Virus record (IMG/VR): IMGVR_UViG_2657245664_000014
DNA length: 5,680 nt
DNA from: a virus
Taxonomy: Duplodnaviria; Heunggongvirae; Uroviricota; Caudoviricetes
Direction: 5' to 3' (one strand)
In this document: piece after piece, positions 1-5,680 of the stretch
Numbering within the stretch: the first letter of the stretch is position 1
Layout: each line of letters opens with the position of its first letter
Notes under the pieces: model-generated
The model's database searches: none
The model's input: only the letters and a program-made list of their open reading frames with translations
Told to the model about the DNA's origin: nothing
Made by a program: the position numbers and the translations under genes

Positions 1-633
1 GATGACTTTACCCGTTATTCTAAAGATCTTGCAGATGAAGGCACCCGCTGCTTTATCGATGCCGATAATATGCGAGCCGTCAGTGTGCTTAACCTGGGTA
101 CTATTGATGAACCAGGTCACGCAGATAACACCGCCACTCTCAAACTGAAAAAGACAGCACCGTTCTCTGCCCTGTTGTCTGTTAACGGCGAGCGTAACTC
201 CCAGAAGTCACTGGCAGAATGGATTGAAGACTGGGCCGACTACCTTGTGGGCTTTGATGCCAATGGTGACGCTATTCAGGCAACAAAAGCGGCTGCGGCA
301 GTCCGTAAAATCACGATTGAAGCAAACCAGACCGCTGATTTTGAAGATAATGACTTCAGCGGCAAACGCTCCCTGATGGAGTCTGTCGAAGCGAAGACCA
401 AAGACATTATGCCAGTGGCATTTGAATTTAAATGCGTTCCGTTTGAAGGTCTGAAAGAACGTCCGTTTAAATTACGCCTCAGCATTATCACTGGCGATCG
501 TCCTGTACTGGTTCTGCGCATTATTCAGCTGGAAGCGATGCAGGAAGAAATGGCTAACGAATTTCGTGATCTGCTTGTTGAGAAATTCAAAGACAGCAAA
601 GTAGAAACCTTTATTGGTACTTTCACCGCCTGA
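1..633 (+). CDS. yfdQ: YfdQ-like prophage protein (DUF2303 family), 5'-truncated by the window edge
   Basis: The reading frame is open from base 1 with no in-frame stop before the ATG at 70, and ends at TGA 631-633. It lies directly upstream of yfdR/yfdS homologues, matching the CPS-53 gene order yfdQ-yfdR-yfdS as I recall it. The family call is from memory of YfdQ, not a search. Confidence 0.6.
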
Positions 634-645
634 TTTCATTACTGC

Positions 646-667
646 AAATGCCCCTGCGGGGGCATTT
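646..667 (+). terminator. Possible weak intrinsic terminator or attenuator hairpin after the yfdQ-like gene
   Basis: aaatgcccc (646-654), loop tgcg, then ggggcattt (659-667) form a 9-bp GC-containing stem 13 nt after the stop codon. The T-tract is short (ttt then atgg), so termination is probably partial. Confidence 0.35.
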
Positions 668-761
668 ATGGAAACGTAATTAACTCAATAATCACCGGAT
701 GGTGAGAGCTTCCTTTTAGCAGAATTCAGCGCGGTGCAGCGCATATAAAGTGGAGAACGAA

Positions 762-1298
762 ATGTCATTTATTAAAACTTTTTCCGGGAAGCATTTTTAT
801 TATGACAAGATAAATAAAGACGACATCGTGATTAACGATATCGCAGTTTCCCTTTCAAATATCTGTCGCTTTGCAGGACATCTTTCACACTTCTACAGCG
901 TCGCCCAGCATGCGGTGCTTTGCAGCCAGCTGGTACCGCAGGAATTTGCTTTTGAAGCGTTAATGCATGATGCAACAGAAGCATATTGCCAGGACATCCC
1001 CGCTCCACTGAAACGCCTTCTTCCTGACTATAAACGGATGGAAGAAAAAATAGATGCCGTAATCCGTGAGAAATACGGGTTACCCCCGGTTATGAGCACG
1101 CCTGTGAAATATGCCGATCTCATCATGCTGGCAACCGAACGCCGCGATCTCGGGCTTGATGATGGCTCTTTCTGGCCTGTACTGGAAGGCATCCCGGCAA
1201 CAGAGATGTTCAACGTGATTCCACTGGCACCGGGCCATGCCTACGGGATGTTTATGGAACGTTTTAACGAGTTATCGGAGTTACGCAAATGCGCATGA
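762..1298 (+). CDS. yfdR: HD-domain phosphohydrolase, YfdR-like (5'-deoxynucleotidase family)
   Basis: ATG at 762 is preceded by GGAG (752-755) at 6-nt spacing; the GTG at 750 used by the ORF track is less likely. The 178-aa product begins MSFIKTFSGKHFYYDK, carries an H...HD...E pattern (AQHAV ... LMHDATEAY), and its length matches E. coli K-12 YfdR as recalled. Confidence 0.85.
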   Translation: MSFIKTFSGKHFYYDKINKDDIVINDIAVSLSNICRFAGHLSHFYSVAQHAVLCSQLVPQEFAFEALMHDATEAYCQDIPAPLKRLLPDYKRMEEKIDAVIREKYGLPPVMSTPVKYADLIMLATERRDLGLDDGSFWPVLEGIPATEMFNVIPLAPGHAYGMFMERFNELSELRKCA

Positions 1299-1651
1299 AT
1301 GTTTTCGAAATGGAAGGGTTTCTTCGCGGGAAATGTGTACCGCGAGATCTGAAAGTGAATGAAACAAATGCTGAGTACCTGGTACGTAAATTCGATGCGC
1401 TTGAAGCTAAATGTGCGGCACTGGAAAACAAAATAATGCCAGTGTCAGCTGAACTGCCGCCAGCAAATGAAAGTGTTCTGTTATTTGATGCTAACGGAGA
1501 AGGCTGGCTGATTGGCTGGCGTTCTCTCTGGTACACCTGGGGACAAAAAGAAACCGGAGAATGGCAGTGGACATTTCAGGTCGGGGACCTTGAAAACGTC
1601 AATATCACTCACTGGGCAGTAATGCCAAAAGCACCGGAGAATAAGAAATGA
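1289..1651 (+). CDS. yfdS: YfdS-like DUF551 prophage protein
   Basis: ATG at 1289 is preceded by GGAG (1277-1280) and overlaps the yfdR 3' end by 10 nt. The 120-aa product matches the length of K-12 YfdS as recalled, with a C-terminal W-rich DUF551-like segment (WLIGWRSLWYTWGQ...THWAVMPKAP). Confidence 0.8.
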   Translation: MRMNVFEMEGFLRGKCVPRDLKVNETNAEYLVRKFDALEAKCAALENKIMPVSAELPPANESVLLFDANGEGWLIGWRSLWYTWGQKETGEWQWTFQVGDLENVNITHWAVMPKAPENKK

Positions 1652-1851
1652 GCGTGATAAAAACTCATACAGGAATTGTTATCACCCGAGACGGTCCGCA
1701 GGTAAAAAAACTGCACCAGACAAAGCGGATGTGGGTCGTCGGAAAAAACGAGTTTTACCACAAAGAAACCGGACGCCGCCACTTTGCAGAAAATACTCGC
1801 CGCCGACTGCTGATCGATACCATCAAGCCTATCGAGGTGAAGCATGTTTAA
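1648..1851 (+). CDS. Hypothetical small prophage protein (67 aa, basic)
   Basis: ATG 1648-1650 overlaps the yfdS stop TGA 1649-1651 (aATGa), with GGAGA at 1636-1640. It sits in a same-strand coupled chain; no recognisable domain. Confidence 0.6.
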   Translation: MSVIKTHTGIVITRDGPQVKKLHQTKRMWVVGKNEFYHKETGRRHFAENTRRRLLIDTIKPIEVKHV

Positions 1852-2083
1852 ACAGAACGAAAAATCTATCGCTCAAATTGCTGAGTATATCCCGCGTGCG
1901 TGCCGGGGTATGCAGTTGCAGGAAGCTAAAGCACGCCTGGAGAAAAAAATTGCGCTCTATATCGATGACGGCTGTGATGCTGCCGTTCTTAACGCGGCGT
2001 TCGCGCCAGCTCTTAACAGTCATACGCGAGAGTCTTTTTTTTCGTGCATCGCAGCGCAGATCCGCAAAGGAGGCAACCAGTGA
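1844..2083 (+). CDS. Hypothetical small prophage protein (79 aa)
   Basis: ATG 1844 is preceded by GAGGTG (1834-1839) and overlaps the upstream ORF end by 8 nt. Its stop TGA 2081-2083 overlaps the GTG start of the next gene. No recognisable domain. Confidence 0.55.
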   Translation: MFKQNEKSIAQIAEYIPRACRGMQLQEAKARLEKKIALYIDDGCDAAVLNAAFAPALNSHTRESFFSCIAAQIRKGGNQ

Positions 2084-2805
2084 GCGAAATTAATTACCAG
2101 GAACTGCGTGAGATAGCAAAAAAGGCAACACAAGGCGAATGGGTCGCATTTATTTCGCCGGGCAAATACGGCACGTACGCCGTACACACACCAGGTGATA
2201 ATCATCACGGAGATATTGTCGACTGGCCAGGATTCGACGAACAGAAGAACGCAGAGAACAACGCTCGTTATATCGCAGCTTTCAACCCTGAAGTAGTACA
2301 GGCACTACTGGACGAACGGGAAAGAAACCAGCAATACATCAAATCCCGCGACCAGGAGAACGAGGATATTGCTCTTACTGTTGGGAAGCTGCGCGTTGAG
2401 CTGGAAGGCAAAGACAGCAAAATAGCCAATCTTACCGCCGAACGCGATGCTCTTCGTGAAGGTGAGATGGGCGACGCTAGGCATAGCAACACACGGGCCG
2501 CAGCTGATATCTACTTCCAACTGGTCGAGGAGTGCGAAATTCCTGCTGGCGGATCTCTGGTCGAGTACGTTGACGATATGCGCGAGAAGCTGGAAGCCGC
2601 AGAGAAGCGCATTGCAGAGTTAGAAAGTGGTTCTCAGGCACAAAAGTTAGTTGAAGCAATCATTGTTGCGATAGAAAACGAACAGGAAAGGCTTTTTGAT
2701 GAAGATTACCTAATGGATTCGAAAGAATGCATTGACGTAATTCGTGAAGAAGTAAAGCGATGGAATGATTCCCGCGCCGCTGGTATTCGCATCAAAGGAG
2801 AGTGA
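2080..2805 (+). CDS. Ead/Ea22-like lambdoid early-region protein
   Basis: GTG at 2080 is preceded by a strong SD AAAGGAGG (2066-2073) at 6-nt spacing, giving the N-terminus (M)SEINYQELREIAKKATQGEW typical of Ead/Ea22-like proteins as recalled. The central region is acidic with heptad-like coiled-coil character. The track's earlier start at 2044 lacks an RBS and overlaps the upstream gene. Confidence 0.8.
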   Translation: MSEINYQELREIAKKATQGEWVAFISPGKYGTYAVHTPGDNHHGDIVDWPGFDEQKNAENNARYIAAFNPEVVQALLDERERNQQYIKSRDQENEDIALTVGKLRVELEGKDSKIANLTAERDALREGEMGDARHSNTRAAADIYFQLVEECEIPAGGSLVEYVDDMREKLEAAEKRIAELESGSQAQKLVEAIIVAIENEQERLFDEDYLMDSKECIDVIREEVKRWNDSRAAGIRIKGE

Positions 2806-2806
2806 G

Positions 2807-2998
2807 ATGAACGGACAAATATCAATTGTTCGACCAGGAGCATGTGACGATCGCGAAATACGAATGATTATTCGTCTGGCGAGGGGGAAAACAATAACTG
2901 CTCTCATTACTCCAGAAAATCTCGCATTAGCATTAACCGGAAAGTCAGACCTGCCAGTAGAGCTAAAGCTGCGAAATGTTGAGATTAAGGTGAAATAG
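2807..2998 (+). CDS. Hypothetical small prophage protein (63 aa)
   Basis: ATG 2807 lies 1 nt after the Ea22-like stop (2803-2805) with AGGAG at 2796-2800. The product MNGQISIVRPG...VELKLRNVEIKVK has no confidently recognised domain. Confidence 0.6.
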   Translation: MNGQISIVRPGACDDREIRMIIRLARGKTITALITPENLALALTGKSDLPVELKLRNVEIKVK

Positions 2999-3000
2999 TT

Positions 3001-3723
3001 ATGAATACTCTTACCAAAGAATGGTTACAGAACACGATTACCGGAATTGAGTCGATAATAGACGATAAATCGTTTGTATGTAGTGAAATAGCATTCGAAA
3101 TAGGTGTGGTTAACAACATACTTACCGCATTTAAAATTGCACTGGCATCGCTGGCAGCAGTATCGGATGAACGGGCAGCCTATGAATTATTTATGGAGAA
3201 GCGTTTCGGGGAATCTGTAGATCGCCGCAGGGCAAAAAATGGTGATAGAGAATACATGGCATGGGATATGGCGCTTGGCTGGATTATCTGGTGTCACCGC
3301 GCCGCCATGCTTCAGGGAGGCCAACCTGTAAACCAAACTTACAACTTGCCAGAATTAATCGAAGGCATGGAAGTTTCCATTGATGTAAGCACTTGTGATG
3401 CTGATTTAGGTAATCGCTATTTCGGCACCGTCACCGAGGCGTTAGAACTTGATACTGCCAAGAATGGTTACATCCTCCTGGTTCAGGACGCAGAGCCAAA
3501 CTTCGATGTAAATGGCAACTCTCCGGTAACTCCGGATAGTTGGATAAGCTGTAGTGAGCGAATGCCGGATGACGGGCAGTGGTGCGTAGTGAACACAGAA
3601 TACGGGTATTACGTGCAATGCTGGTCTGAAGGTCAAGGATGGCTTGGTGATGATATCAGCATCCCTGAATGCGATGTAATCAATTGGATGCCGCTACCGG
3701 AACCGCCGCAGGAGGTGAAGTGA
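3001..3723 (+). CDS. Prophage protein with C-terminal DUF551-like domain (240 aa)
   Basis: ATG 3001 lies 2 nt after the previous stop with AAGGTG upstream. The C-terminal segment WISCSERMPDDGQWCVV...YYVQCW...INWMPLPEPP resembles the W-rich DUF551 domain also seen in YfdS. The N-terminal ~170 aa is unassigned. Confidence 0.75.
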   Translation: MNTLTKEWLQNTITGIESIIDDKSFVCSEIAFEIGVVNNILTAFKIALASLAAVSDERAAYELFMEKRFGESVDRRRAKNGDREYMAWDMALGWIIWCHRAAMLQGGQPVNQTYNLPELIEGMEVSIDVSTCDADLGNRYFGTVTEALELDTAKNGYILLVQDAEPNFDVNGNSPVTPDSWISCSERMPDDGQWCVVNTEYGYYVQCWSEGQGWLGDDISIPECDVINWMPLPEPPQEVK

Positions 3724-4295
3724 TGAACAACTTAATGATCGACCTTGAGACGATGGGGAAAAATAAGGATGCACCGATCGTTTCCATTGGCGCGGTGTTC
3801 TTCACTCCAGAAACCGGAGACATCGGACAAGAATTTTATGCGGTTGTCAGCCTGGACAGTGCTATGGAGCAAGGGGCCACACCTGACGGCGATACCATCC
3901 TGTGGTGGTTGAAACAAAGCCCTGAAGCACGAGCTGCAATCTGTATTGATGATACTTTGTCGATCAGCGATGCACTCTCTGAACTGAGCCATTTCATTAA
4001 TCGGCACGCAGACAATACGAAATATTTAAAAGTTTGGGGTAACGGGGCCACCTTCGACAACGTAATTTTACGCGGAGCTTATGAACGAGCAGGACAAATC
4101 TGCCCATGGGCGTACTGGAATGATCACGATGTACGCACGATCGTTACGCTTGGGCGTTCCATCGGATTCGACCCCAAAATGGACATGCCCTTCGATGGCG
4201 AACGGCACAACGCCCTGGCCGATGCCCGTCATCAGGCAAAATATGTTTCCGCTATCTGGCAGAAATTAATTCCTGCCACCAGCACAGAATTATGA
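3723..4295 (+). CDS. DnaQ-like DEDDh 3'-5' exonuclease (phage-type)
   Basis: ATG 3723 overlaps the upstream stop TGA 3721-3723 with GGAGG at 3711-3715. The 190-aa product shows Exo I (MIDLETMG), Exo II (WGNGATFDNVIL) and Exo III (HNALADARHQAKY) motifs in the expected order. Confidence 0.8.
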   Translation: MNNLMIDLETMGKNKDAPIVSIGAVFFTPETGDIGQEFYAVVSLDSAMEQGATPDGDTILWWLKQSPEARAAICIDDTLSISDALSELSHFINRHADNTKYLKVWGNGATFDNVILRGAYERAGQICPWAYWNDHDVRTIVTLGRSIGFDPKMDMPFDGERHNALADARHQAKYVSAIWQKLIPATSTEL

Positions 4296-4331
4296 TTTTC
4301 CCGGGTGCAGCCGGTTTTGATGGAGAAAATT

Positions 4332-4604
4332 ATGAACACCTTGTTTTTACTGATGGCTGAATTCAATACCCCTAACATTGAACTCTCAGCAGTTAGCCAA
4401 AAGTACTTTGGCATGAGTCCAGCCACGGCAGAAGCAAAAGCAAACGCTTGTAAGTTGCCCGTTCCAACATATCGCATCGGCACATCACAAAAAGCAAAAC
4501 GTTGCATCAATATTCAGGATCTTGCGGAATACATAGACAAAAGGCGAGAAGAAGGGCGTGCTGAGTGGGAAAGGGTCAGAACCCATAAACAAAGGCTCAT
4601 TTAA
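4332..4604 (+). CDS. PrtN-family / excisionase-like DNA-binding protein (putative Xis or regulator)
   Basis: ATG 4332 is preceded by GGAG (4322-4325) at 6-nt spacing. The N-terminus MNTLFLLMAEF and the core ...KLPVPTYRIGTSQKAKRCINIQDLAEYIDKRREE resemble the pyocin-activator PrtN family as recalled. It is the last plus-strand gene before the terminator, where xis normally sits. Confidence 0.65.
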   Translation: MNTLFLLMAEFNTPNIELSAVSQKYFGMSPATAEAKANACKLPVPTYRIGTSQKAKRCINIQDLAEYIDKRREEGRAEWERVRTHKQRLI

Positions 4605-4609
4605 ATAGA

Positions 4610-4647
4610 ATATGAATAAACCCATCCAAAGATGGGTTTATTCATAA
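4610..4647. terminator. Bidirectional intrinsic terminator between convergent transcription units
   Basis: A perfect 17-bp inverted repeat, atatgaataaacccatc (4610-4626) and gatgggtttattcatat (4631-4647), surrounds a 4-nt loop caaa. It lies between the 3' ends of the plus-strand chain (stop 4602-4604) and the minus-strand module (stop 4638-4640), with AT-rich flanks on both sides. Confidence 0.7.
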
Positions 4648-5099
4648 TGTTGAAGAGCAGCGAGTATCAGTTTTTTATGCCGTTTAACCATAGTTTTAGA
4701 TATCTCAACTGCACATCGAACTTGTCTCATACAATGATCTGTAATGCGACCTTTTAGCACGTCACCATATTGGATGGCTATTTTCTCTTTAATAATTTCA
4801 AGATCGAAAGCAGCATGAGCCTCAATGCAATTAACAAATGAGTCCCATTTAAGAAAATCATGGTCCTCTCTATTAATTTCGACCTGACAAGCCATAAGAT
4901 CATTGTTTCTCTTAATAAATTCATTTATATCTGAATTTATTAGAAGAACTAAAAGAGGTTCACAGCAAACAACCACCATATATTTTACTTTAGGTGGGGT
5001 CGTAAAATCACAATGAAGATACAATACATCACCGGGTGATATACCTCTTTCACGACTAAAATTAGCCTTAAAATCAGGAGGGAAACAATCACCCAGCAT
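4638..5099 (-). CDS. Uncharacterised ~153-aa protein, putative partner (candidate toxin/effector) of the Panacea-domain protein
   Basis: The minus-strand ORF has an ATG at 5099-5097, or a TTG at 5108 overlapping the upstream stop (5105-5107). It is immediately downstream of the Panacea-domain gene with no intergenic space. AT-rich codon usage; no recognised domain. Confidence 0.6.
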   Translation of the reverse strand: MLGDCFPPDFKANFSRERGISPGDVLYLHCDFTTPPKVKYMVVVCCEPLLVLLINSDINEFIKRNNDLMACQVEINREDHDFLKWDSFVNCIEAHAAFDLEIIKEKIAIQYGDVLKGRITDHCMRQVRCAVEISKTMVKRHKKLILAALQHYE

Positions 5100-5104
5100 A
5101 AGTA

Positions 5105-5632
5105 TCAATATCCGTTCTTCAGATAATCCAGTATTAATTTGCTATTTTTTAGCTGTGCAACTATCGATTCCAAAGACATCTCACCATTGTGATCTGCCTG
5201 TTCCCATGCCGCGTCATGGCTCATGGTTCTGATAGCTTCAAAGGACATGTTTCCAAGCATCGCGATAGACTTATCAATACACTCTAAATCTGAGTCACTA
5301 AAAAAGTCTTCATCAGCTTCACGGCTCGGCACAATCGTCATACCTGATACAGAAAATGCTTTTCGCACAGAATCGACATCACAACCATTAGGAATGTAAC
5401 GTCCATCTCCACGAGCAATTTTTATAATATCGTATGTGTTGCTTGCTACAGGCCCATCCTTCATAGCGTTATAGTGATCGCCCGTTATGAGGCGTCCAAA
5501 ACTTTCAAGGTGAAACCTGTCAGCATAATAAAGAATTTTTCCGACATGATAGATATCTGGGATCGGTGCTTTAGAGGCGACGTACAGAATGGCCTCTAAA
5601 GCCTTTTCTGAATCAAACCTTACATTTAGCAT
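5105..5632 (-). CDS. Panacea/DUF4065 (GepA/SocA-like) domain protein, putative antitoxin; 5' end uncertain
   Basis: The core motif HVGKILYYADRFHLESFGRLITGDHYNAMKDGPVASNTYD matches the conserved K-[IL]-LYYA...G.P...W/AMK.GPV signature of DUF4065 as recalled. The frame stays open to the window edge at 5680. In-frame ATGs lie at 5647 and 5632, the latter with a GAAGGG-like RBS 7 nt upstream, so the start is either of these or beyond the window. Confidence 0.7.
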   Translation of the reverse strand: MLNVRFDSEKALEAILYVASKAPIPDIYHVGKILYYADRFHLESFGRLITGDHYNAMKDGPVASNTYDIIKIARGDGRYIPNGCDVDSVRKAFSVSGMTIVPSREADEDFFSDSDLECIDKSIAMLGNMSFEAIRTMSHDAAWEQADHNGEMSLESIVAQLKNSKLILDYLKNGY

Positions 5633-5680
5633 CAATACACCCTTCATCCAAACAACATCGTCAAGCTCTGGCAAATGCAA

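Follow-up and report, generated by a model that had tools for sequence, protein, structure and literature searches.

The window analysed here is a stretch of 5,680 nucleotides assigned to a virus of the Caudoviricetes (IMG/VR record IMGVR_UViG_2657245664_000014). Positions 1-1851 contain a cluster of genes, whose features, together with those of two ORFs that extend or lie beyond this region, are as follows.

1..633, + strand: yfdQ (family DUF2303), 3' part; base 1 falls within the gene, and of its 274 codons the C-terminal 210 are included
647..666, + strand: hairpin
762..1298, + strand: yfdR, 178 aa, complete, HD-domain 5'-deoxynucleotidase homologue
1289..1651, + strand: yfdS, 120 aa, complete
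1639, no strand: mosaic junction, where homology to K-12 CPS-53 has its last base (blastn)
1648..1851, + strand: 67-aa ORF (WP_000111289.1 in relatives; mEp460 gp31)
1844..2083, + strand: 79-aa ORF (WP_000476211.1; mEp460 gp30)
3001..3723, + strand: 240-aa DUF551 ORF, outside 1-1851, with a YfdT-like segment inside

We showed that the order, spacing and overlaps of yfdQ, yfdR and yfdS are identical to those of the CPS-53 genes of Escherichia coli K-12, and that the products differ from the CPS-53 proteins by only 1-3 substitutions. In BLASTP comparisons with K-12 MG1655, YfdQ was 98.6% identical to aa 65-274 of its counterpart (over 210 aa), YfdR 99.4% identical over the full 178 aa (the sole substitution being D170E) and YfdS 99.1% identical to aa 1-117, while the DNA of window positions 1-1639 is 97.5% identical to CPS-53 (blastn). 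This match is far beyond chance and, judging by the sequences, the three genes are almost certainly orthologues of yfdQ, yfdR and yfdS, which corroborates the original prediction in respect of both the cluster and the location of its ORFs. The yfdQ frame is open from base 1 to the stop codon at 631-633; its first 64 codons fall outside the window, and the gene is full-length in every close relative examined (fS58a, CFS3292 and mEp460).

The genes of the cluster are densely packed. The start of yfdS overlaps the stop of yfdR by 10 nt, the start of the 67-aa ORF overlaps the stop of yfdS (ATGA), and ribosome-binding sites were seen upstream of yfdR (GGAG, 7 nt from the ATG) and of the 67-aa ORF (GGAG, 9 nt upstream); the genes are translationally coupled. 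All reading frames are intact, and the pN/pS values in comparison with K-12 range across the cluster from 0.015 for yfdR (18 synonymous versus 1 non-synonymous changes) to 0.15 for yfdQ, a pattern that indicates strong purifying selection. These observations speak against the view of the cluster as cryptic-prophage debris that is in decay and currently serves no function. Such a view would agree with the nature of K-12 CPS-53, a cryptic remnant, and with the neutral effect of a yfdQRST deletion in the laboratory (PMC4776307). However, positions 1-1851 match 3088 of the 5426 complete E. coli genomes, and the cluster is also carried by viable phages (mEp460 and Stx phages) and by the apparently complete prophage of fS58a, and we consider decay to be very improbable.

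The homology with K-12 stops abruptly at base 1639 (blastn), where the nucleotide identity falls from its high level to none, 12 nt before the yfdS stop codon and directly after the GGAG serving the 67-aa ORF. The last three residues of YfdS differ from those of the K-12 protein because of this end of homology. The same end point is common to many Stx and ECOR phages and to most E. coli genomes, and the junction between yfdS and the 67-aa ORF is kept in only 255 of the 5426 complete E. coli genomes. In the original prediction the 67-aa ORF was taken for a divergent fourth gene of the cluster. The sole argument for regarding this ORF (or the 79-aa ORF) as a diverged, shortened YfdT is its position directly 3' of yfdS. 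Neither ORF gave a BLASTP match to K-12 YfdT at E<=10, and both correspond over their full length to other protein families, namely phrog_1226 (67-aa ORF, E=2e-42) and phrog_1344 (79-aa ORF, E=3.7e-53), as opposed to phrog_660, phrog_60, phrog_5117 and phrog_3323 for YfdT. Considering also the abrupt switch at base 1639 and the clear YfdT-like segment located elsewhere (3134-3291), the idea of a diverged YfdT has next to no probability and is refuted at the sequence level. The comparisons indicate instead that the change at base 1639 is a module replacement and not divergence, and that the gene after yfdS is evidently an unrelated small phage gene acquired by module exchange at this point; it is annotated in fS58a, CFS3292 and mEp460.

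The real counterpart of K-12 YfdT is evidently contained within residues 43-103 of the 240-aa ORF, i.e. 1.5 kb beyond the cluster and inside a larger gene. These residues are 74% identical to aa 30-90 of YfdT over 61 aa (E=3e-31), the DNA of window positions 3134-3291 is 81% identical to K-12 yfdT, and both proteins belong to phrog_660 and phrog_60. The kinship is partial: the N-termini differ, and the 240-aa ORF has an additional DUF551 domain (Pfam, E=2.2e-11 at aa 180-237). K-12 YfdT (101 aa) appears to be a short, mosaic protein related to the N-terminal or middle portion of a larger protein with DUF551, and the window contains this larger protein intact. An internal deletion was also considered. 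Both proteins end in QEVK*, but the stretch of similar DNA there, which surrounds a GAGGTGA ribosome-binding site, is only ~14 nt long and too short to support such an event.

YfdS (phrog_583, E=7.7e-82) is composed of an N-terminal module of ~50 aa and a DUF551-like C-terminal domain, the latter scoring 19.9 bits with Pfam DUF551 (PF04448), below the gathering cut-off of 22. The family phrog_924 matches YfdS 51-118 as well as residues 171-239 of the 240-aa ORF, and phrog_7704 likewise matches the C-terminal part of YfdS as well as this ORF's DUF551 domain. This domain is all that the two proteins share, and it is absent from YfdT. We asked whether the redundancy of YfdS and YfdT reflects homology, and no BLASTP homology between them was found.

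Positions 1-1851 are 100% identical in E. coli A20. Over the whole of this region, including the 67-aa gene, the identity with gp34-gp30 of the viable phage mEp460 (NC_019716) is 98.6% at the nucleotide level; these genes and SfV orf29-31 are together among the closest known systems. In the window the cluster is followed by orf67, orf79, an Ea22-like gene, orf63, the 240-aa DUF551 gene, an exonuclease gene and a PrtN-type xis, and the Ea22, exonuclease and xis-like genes predicted to follow are thus all present. The gene order downstream of the repressor is the same in mEp460, fS58a and CFS3292, and that of mEp460, from the repressor to xis, is identical to that of the prophage studied here; the differences are that the Ea22-like gene of mEp460 is shorter and that two other hypothetical genes replace the Panacea pair. 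The suggestion of a more complete prophage context holds within the window for the Ea22-like, exonuclease and xis-like genes; the apparently complete prophage (~46 kb, inserted in dusA) was seen in the relative fS58a, the closest complete genome. The description of the cluster as “CPS-53-type” applies to the mosaic module only, and not to the prophage: the relatives are located at dusA and have a different integrase, whereas K-12 CPS-53 (KpLE1) is located at argW and, unlike the window, carries yfdT-ypdJ-torI next to yfdS. Positions 1-1851 very probably belong to an SfV/mEp460-type lambdoid prophage of E. coli and represent the yfdQ(3')-yfdR-yfdS-orf67 part of its early-left operon, which extends from the CI-like repressor gene towards xis. 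Among the early genes of lambdoid prophages in E. coli, yfdQ-yfdR-yfdS are well catalogued and already known, and the cluster is an ordinary, near-identical copy of them. Thousands of E. coli genomes, as well as sequenced phages, carry it in their annotation, and the one activity known for it was described in a 2016 paper.

In that study, Noguchi & Katayama (PMC4776307) found that the minimal gene set inhibiting replication initiation comprises yfdQ and yfdR together with yfdS or, alternatively, yfdT. Purified K-12 YfdR binds domain I of DnaA specifically via Phe46, competes with DiaA and DnaB, and is inhibitory in vitro; alone it inhibits moderately, and in vivo it needs YfdQ and YfdS or YfdT (PMC4776307). 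These findings were restated in PMC12122000, and the background given in the original prediction (YfdR-DnaA binding, and the inhibition of initiation by cluster overexpression) proved accurate. Inhibition was observed only from multicopy plasmids, deletion of yfdQRST left initiation and hydroxyurea resistance unchanged, and the authors could not exclude an overexpression artefact (PMC4776307).

The inhibiting gene set is present in the window, with yfdR and yfdS complete and yfdQ extending to the window edge. If the K-12 findings apply, YfdR, a weak dNMP phosphatase, would bind DnaA domain I in a Phe46-dependent manner, in competition with DiaA and DnaB, and YfdQ, YfdR and YfdS oversupplied together would inhibit initiation at oriC. 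In an intact prophage the position of the cluster suggests that it would be silent in the lysogen and expressed early after induction; this early expression could interrupt initiation in the host for a time, in the manner of lambda P. The proposed analogy with lambda P and with the DnaA domain-I binders DiaA, HobA, SirA and Dps, in which a phage or regulatory protein would lower oriC initiation through DnaA binding, is functional and involves no sequence relationship; lambda P binds DnaA domain III, whereas YfdR uses the Phe46 patch that is used by DiaA and DnaB (PMC4776307). The inhibition of initiation is possibly the natural role of the cluster, although we propose it tentatively. Inducible prophages of this type would constitute the natural system for studying whether YfdR-DnaA binding has any physiological role, a question left open in PMC4776307.

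Alternatively, the true function of the module might lie in nucleotide or DNA metabolism at an early stage of phage development, with YfdR as the HD-domain dNMP phosphohydrolase and YfdP and YfdQ as its conserved partners, and with the DnaA effects as side effects of overexpression. YfdR belongs to phrog_318 (E=4e-110), which carries the PHROG label deoxyribonucleoside 5'-monophosphate phosphatase, and among solved structures Atu1052 (2GZ4, E=1e-13) is the nearest to it. The metal ligands of the H...HD...D motif (H50, H69-D70 and D119; the motif and the YfbR ligand residues are defined in PMC8177086) are all unsubstituted, in line with the original prediction of an HD-motif protein. R36, F37, E73 and D78 are also present, and these metal-ligand and substrate residues (R36, F37, H50, H69, D70, E73, D78 and D119) are invariant in four orthologues showing 58-64% identity. 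Such invariance of the catalytic residues points to selection on enzyme activity, which counts against the initiation role. For the H...HD...D metal ligands of YfbR, the HD-domain 5'-deoxynucleotidase of E. coli (PDB 2PAQ), and for its substrate residues (Arg-aromatic, Glu and Asp), counterparts exist in YfdR, but the two proteins share only ~23% identity and W19 of YfbR corresponds to F37 of YfdR. Furthermore, YfdR does not reach the cut-offs of the Pfam YfbR-like model (PF12917; 24.3 bits, cut-off 25.9) and the NCBIfam YfbR equivalog model (NF003009; 19.9 bits, cut-off 122), and its nucleotide affinities are reportedly far below those of YfbR (Zimmerman 2008, as cited in PMC4776307). By sequence criteria YfdR ranks as a relative of YfbR among HD proteins, and not as a YfbR. 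The low affinities and the unreached models argue against a metabolic function, as does the specificity of DnaA binding by the purified protein.

Gene neighbourhoods are also of relevance. In prophages of Yersinia, Serratia and Klebsiella the conserved trio after the repressor is yfdP-yfdQ-yfdR, without yfdS; across the Enterobacterales the conserved neighbours are these three genes and not yfdS or yfdT. The conservation of yfdP, and not of yfdS, beside yfdQ-yfdR is at odds with the initiation role and is consistent with the metabolic one. The latter also agrees with a 2025 survey in which a yfdP-yfdQ-yfbR-like cluster was common in lambdoid early-left operons (PMC12315714), with the neighbourhood of YfdQ homologues in Xylella phage Usme, where they adjoin genes for an ERF recombinase, an exonuclease and an SSB, and with the absence of a replication phenotype upon deletion. 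Against it stands the predicted model of YfdQ, which has no recombinase- or nuclease-like fold. A primarily metabolic function, which is compatible with the inhibition of initiation as the main explanation, is conceivable but somewhat doubtful.

YfdQ matches Pfam PF10065 with 235.8 bits (cut-off 26.6; E=6.6e-70) over profile positions 61-269 of 269, and corresponds to phrog_210. DUF2303 proteins also occur in phages of Xanthomonas and Gordonia, and the DnaA of these hosts is a different one, an observation that speaks against the initiation role. A profile search of the PDB with YfdQ identified entry 9O7M (“YfdQ Protein”, 36 chains), a Xanthomonas/Xylella-phage homologue, for which no paper was found in the literature; the same database gave no match with YfdP as the query. 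The 36 YfdQ chains of this entry, taken together with the lack of recognisable fold relatives of YfdQ, suggest that YfdQ could form a large homo-oligomeric assembly. It might be speculated that the functional unit is a phage-wide yfdP-yfdQ(-yfdR) core, and not the yfdQRS(T) set as defined in K-12. In such a unit YfdQ would act as a large homo-oligomer with a general role in early phage DNA transactions, and YfdR would link the YfdQ assembly to DnaA in enterobacterial prophages, stopping host initiation on induction. We consider this scenario unlikely.

The region was also scanned for other elements. PADLOC gave no defence-system match for any cluster protein, Rfam gave no matches in the window at E<=1, and a promoter/terminator scan of 1-1851 revealed nothing notable, promoter-like sites being fewer than in shuffled sequence. 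The 128-nt spacer between yfdQ and yfdR contains a stable hairpin (AAUGCCCC-UGCG-GGGGCAUU, 647..666, + strand), placed just 3' of the yfdQ stop codon and without a U-tract. The RNA fold of the spacer (634-761) has an MFE of -37.4 kcal/mol (z = -2.1). The hairpin sequence is identical in K-12, and in other genomes mosaic breakpoints are located at 650 and 681. The hairpin may be regarded as a candidate for an element that marks the 3' end of an RNA or stabilises it, or for a weak terminator.

The original prediction placed a yfdQ-yfdR-yfdS cluster like that of the E. coli K-12 cryptic prophage CPS-53 at window positions 1-1851, and the identity of the genes is certain. BLASTP comparison with K-12 MG1655 gave 98.6% identity for YfdQ (over the 210 residues visible in the window, whose edge cuts the gene), 99.4% for YfdR (sole substitution D170E) and 99.1% for YfdS (residues 1-117). 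The synonymous and non-synonymous differences from K-12 (6/3 in yfdQ, 18/1 in yfdR and 4/1 in yfdS) correspond to pN/pS values of 0.15, 0.015 and 0.07, respectively; selection therefore maintains all three genes. The ORF map revealed a single plus-strand operon of tightly packed genes, convergent with a minus-strand pair.

Features of the window
1 to the stop at 631-633, plus strand: yfdQ, C-terminal 210 residues of a DUF2303 protein (frame 1 open; Pfam PF10065, E=6.6e-70)
762-1298, plus strand: yfdR, GGAG 7 nt upstream of the ATG
1289-1651, plus strand: yfdS, 10-nt overlap with the yfdR stop
1648-1851, plus strand: 67-aa ORF, ATGA overlap; PHROG family 1226, full-length
1844-2083, plus strand: 79-aa ORF; PHROG family 1344, full-length
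2080-2805, plus strand: Ea22-like gene
2807-2998, plus strand: 63-aa ORF
3001-3723, plus strand: 240-aa DUF551 gene (C-terminal Pfam DUF551 domain, E=2.2e-11)
3723-4295, plus strand: Rv2179c-like DEDDh 3'-5' exonuclease (PF16473, E=1.9e-75)
4332-4604, plus strand: PrtN-family excisionase-like gene, last in the operon
4638-5099 or 4638-5108, minus strand: AT-rich 153/156-aa ORF, after the Panacea gene
5105 to beyond 5680, minus strand: Panacea/SocA-like antitoxin-domain gene (PF13274, E=5e-20)

The 128-nt spacer between yfdQ and yfdR contains, directly 3' of the yfdQ stop (647-666, plus strand), a GC-rich 8-bp hairpin, AAUGCCCC-UGCG-GGGGCAUU, which lacks a U-tract and has the same sequence in K-12. 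A second hairpin, with a 16-bp stem (4611-4646), lies between the PrtN-like gene and the minus-strand pair, and looks like a bidirectional terminator. In prophages of this type from E. coli, Yersinia and Serratia, the Rv2179c-like exonuclease is conserved at the same position.

The expectation that the gene following yfdS is a divergent yfdT had to be abandoned. BLASTP detected no similarity between K-12 YfdT and either the 67-aa or the 79-aa ORF at E<=10, and the families of the two ORFs (PHROG 1226 and 1344) differ from those matched by YfdT (phrog_660, 60, 5117 and 3323). Nucleotide identity to CPS-53 is 97.5% over 1-1639 and then ceases altogether. The break at base 1639 precedes the yfdS stop by 12 nt and directly follows the GGAG serving the next gene; because homology ends here, the last three YfdS residues differ from those of K-12. 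Judged from these alignments, the change of gene at 1639 is a module exchange and not a case of divergence. The sole other stretch of the window homologous to CPS-53 (3134-3291) is 81% identical to yfdT; at the protein level, identity is 74% between residues 43-103 of the 240-aa DUF551 product and YfdT residues 30-90 (E=3e-31). YfdT-like sequence is therefore present, within a larger protein with a C-terminal DUF551 domain that K-12 YfdT lacks. YfdT spans positions 3-148 out of the 193 in the phrog_660 profile, a coverage which suggests that it is a shortened mosaic form. In strain CFS3292, the DUF551 gene is replaced by one with a dATP/dGTP pyrophosphohydrolase domain.

The 1-1851 segment has a 100% identical copy in E. 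coli A20 and is matched by 3088 of the 5426 complete E. coli genomes. The viable lambdoid phage mEp460 and phiSTEC1575-Stx2k carry it from end to end at 98.6% identity, and parts of it appear in 135 phage records, chiefly of Stx-converting phages. In most genomes and phages the match ends exactly at 1639, a junction common to K-12, many Stx and ECOR phages and most E. coli genomes, and the yfdS-to-67-aa ORF junction is retained in only 255 of the 5426 genomes. Further recurrent breakpoints were found in the yfdQ-yfdR spacer (650 and 681, in other genomes), at the end of yfdR (1271-1296) and inside yfdS (1397). This pattern is ordinary lambdoid mosaicism.

The reported inhibition of replication initiation agrees with its source (Noguchi & Katayama 2016, PMC4776307), subject to qualifications. 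In that study the binding of purified YfdR to DnaA depended on Phe46; its competition with DiaA and DnaB was only moderate, every effect needed multicopy plasmids, deletion of yfdQRST left initiation and hydroxyurea resistance unchanged, and the authors could not exclude an overexpression artefact. Later papers merely cite this result (e.g. PMC12122000). The window holds the yfdQ-yfdR-yfdS version of the sufficient inhibitory set (with yfdQ as its visible part). The best-supported mechanism is one transferred from K-12: YfdR would bind domain I of DnaA and, together with YfdQ and YfdS, would lower initiation at oriC, which the operon position suggests might happen only after prophage induction. 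That such inhibition is the natural role of the cluster seems to us somewhat less likely than not, since the evidence is confined to multicopy conditions, the catalytic residues of YfdR are invariant and yfdS is not conserved. The main rival explanation, which is compatible with inhibition of initiation, is that a yfdP-yfdQ-yfdR core serves nucleotide or DNA metabolism.

The HD motif, whose integrity had been singled out for checking, is intact: YfdR retains H50, H69-D70 and D119, as well as R36-F37, E73 and D78. These residues align with the metal ligands of Atu1052, a relative of known structure (2GZ4, E=1e-13), and with H33/H68/D69/D137 and R18/W19/D77 of the E. coli 5'-deoxynucleotidase YfbR (listed in PMC8177086), and they are invariant in orthologues of 58-64% identity from Yersinia ruckeri, Serratia and Klebsiella prophages. 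YfdR was rejected as a YfbR equivalog, scoring 19.9 bits against the 122 needed for NCBIfam NF003009 and 24.3 bits, below the 25.9 cut-off, for Pfam PF12917. The YfdQ homologues of these three genera (62-64% identical) occupy the corresponding position, after a Peptidase_S24 (CI-like) repressor, always with a YfdP-family gene before them and a 175-178-aa YfdR orthologue behind; the next gene encodes 60-66 aa, compared with 120 aa for YfdS. The conserved core is therefore yfdP-yfdQ-yfdR, a point also made in a 2025 survey of lambdoid phages (PMC12315714), which describes the functions of YfdP and YfdQ as unknown. Further on, the loci of the three genera often carry an Rv2179c-like exonuclease and an integrase.

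The YfdQ model (AlphaFold2, mean pLDDT 75) matched in BFVD only other DUF2303 phage proteins, one of them from a Gordonia phage. A profile search of PDB sequences identified entry 9O7M ("YfdQ Protein", 36 chains; E=2.7e-56), which is absent from the fold libraries and for which our literature search found no paper mentioning it; its protein, a homologue from a Xanthomonas/Xylella phage, is ~99% identical to a gene product of Xanthomonas phage MET23-P3. In the Xylella phage Usme, genes for an ERF recombinase, an exonuclease and an SSB lie downstream of the homologue (7001-7777 of that locus). Clearly, the family extends beyond hosts with an E. coli-type DnaA.

The suggestion of a more complete prophage context holds for the relatives of this DNA. 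E. coli fS58a is 99.4% identical over 1-4582, and its cluster sits in a ~46 kb prophage, extending from an integrase adjoining dusA to a duplicated dusA fragment, with full tail, head, terminase, lysis, Q, replication and immunity regions. CPS-53 lies at argW and has intS, so the prophage itself does not resemble it. In mEp460 the order is CI-like repressor, yfdP-like gene, DUF2303, YfdR, YfdS, the 67-aa and 79-aa ORFs, Ea22-like gene, 63-aa ORF, DUF551, exonuclease, excisionase, two minus-strand genes and integrase. The cluster, its neighbours and its sole known activity are all already on record, and none of them is new.

In place of the minus-strand Panacea pair of the window, fS58a and mEp460 carry two other hypothetical genes. 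The pair (4638-5680) has a low GC content (0.34-0.40), and its 153/156-aa ORF had no match in Pfam, PHROG or PADLOC; the pair may be a PanA-type toxin-antitoxin or defence "moron", located where the prophage ends by the dusA fragment. The related prophage of fS58a also has SLATT-domain and reverse-transcriptase genes (7403-9302 of its locus), absent from the window, which adjoin the prophage integrase and a dinI-like gene and look like retron- or DRT-like defence cargo.
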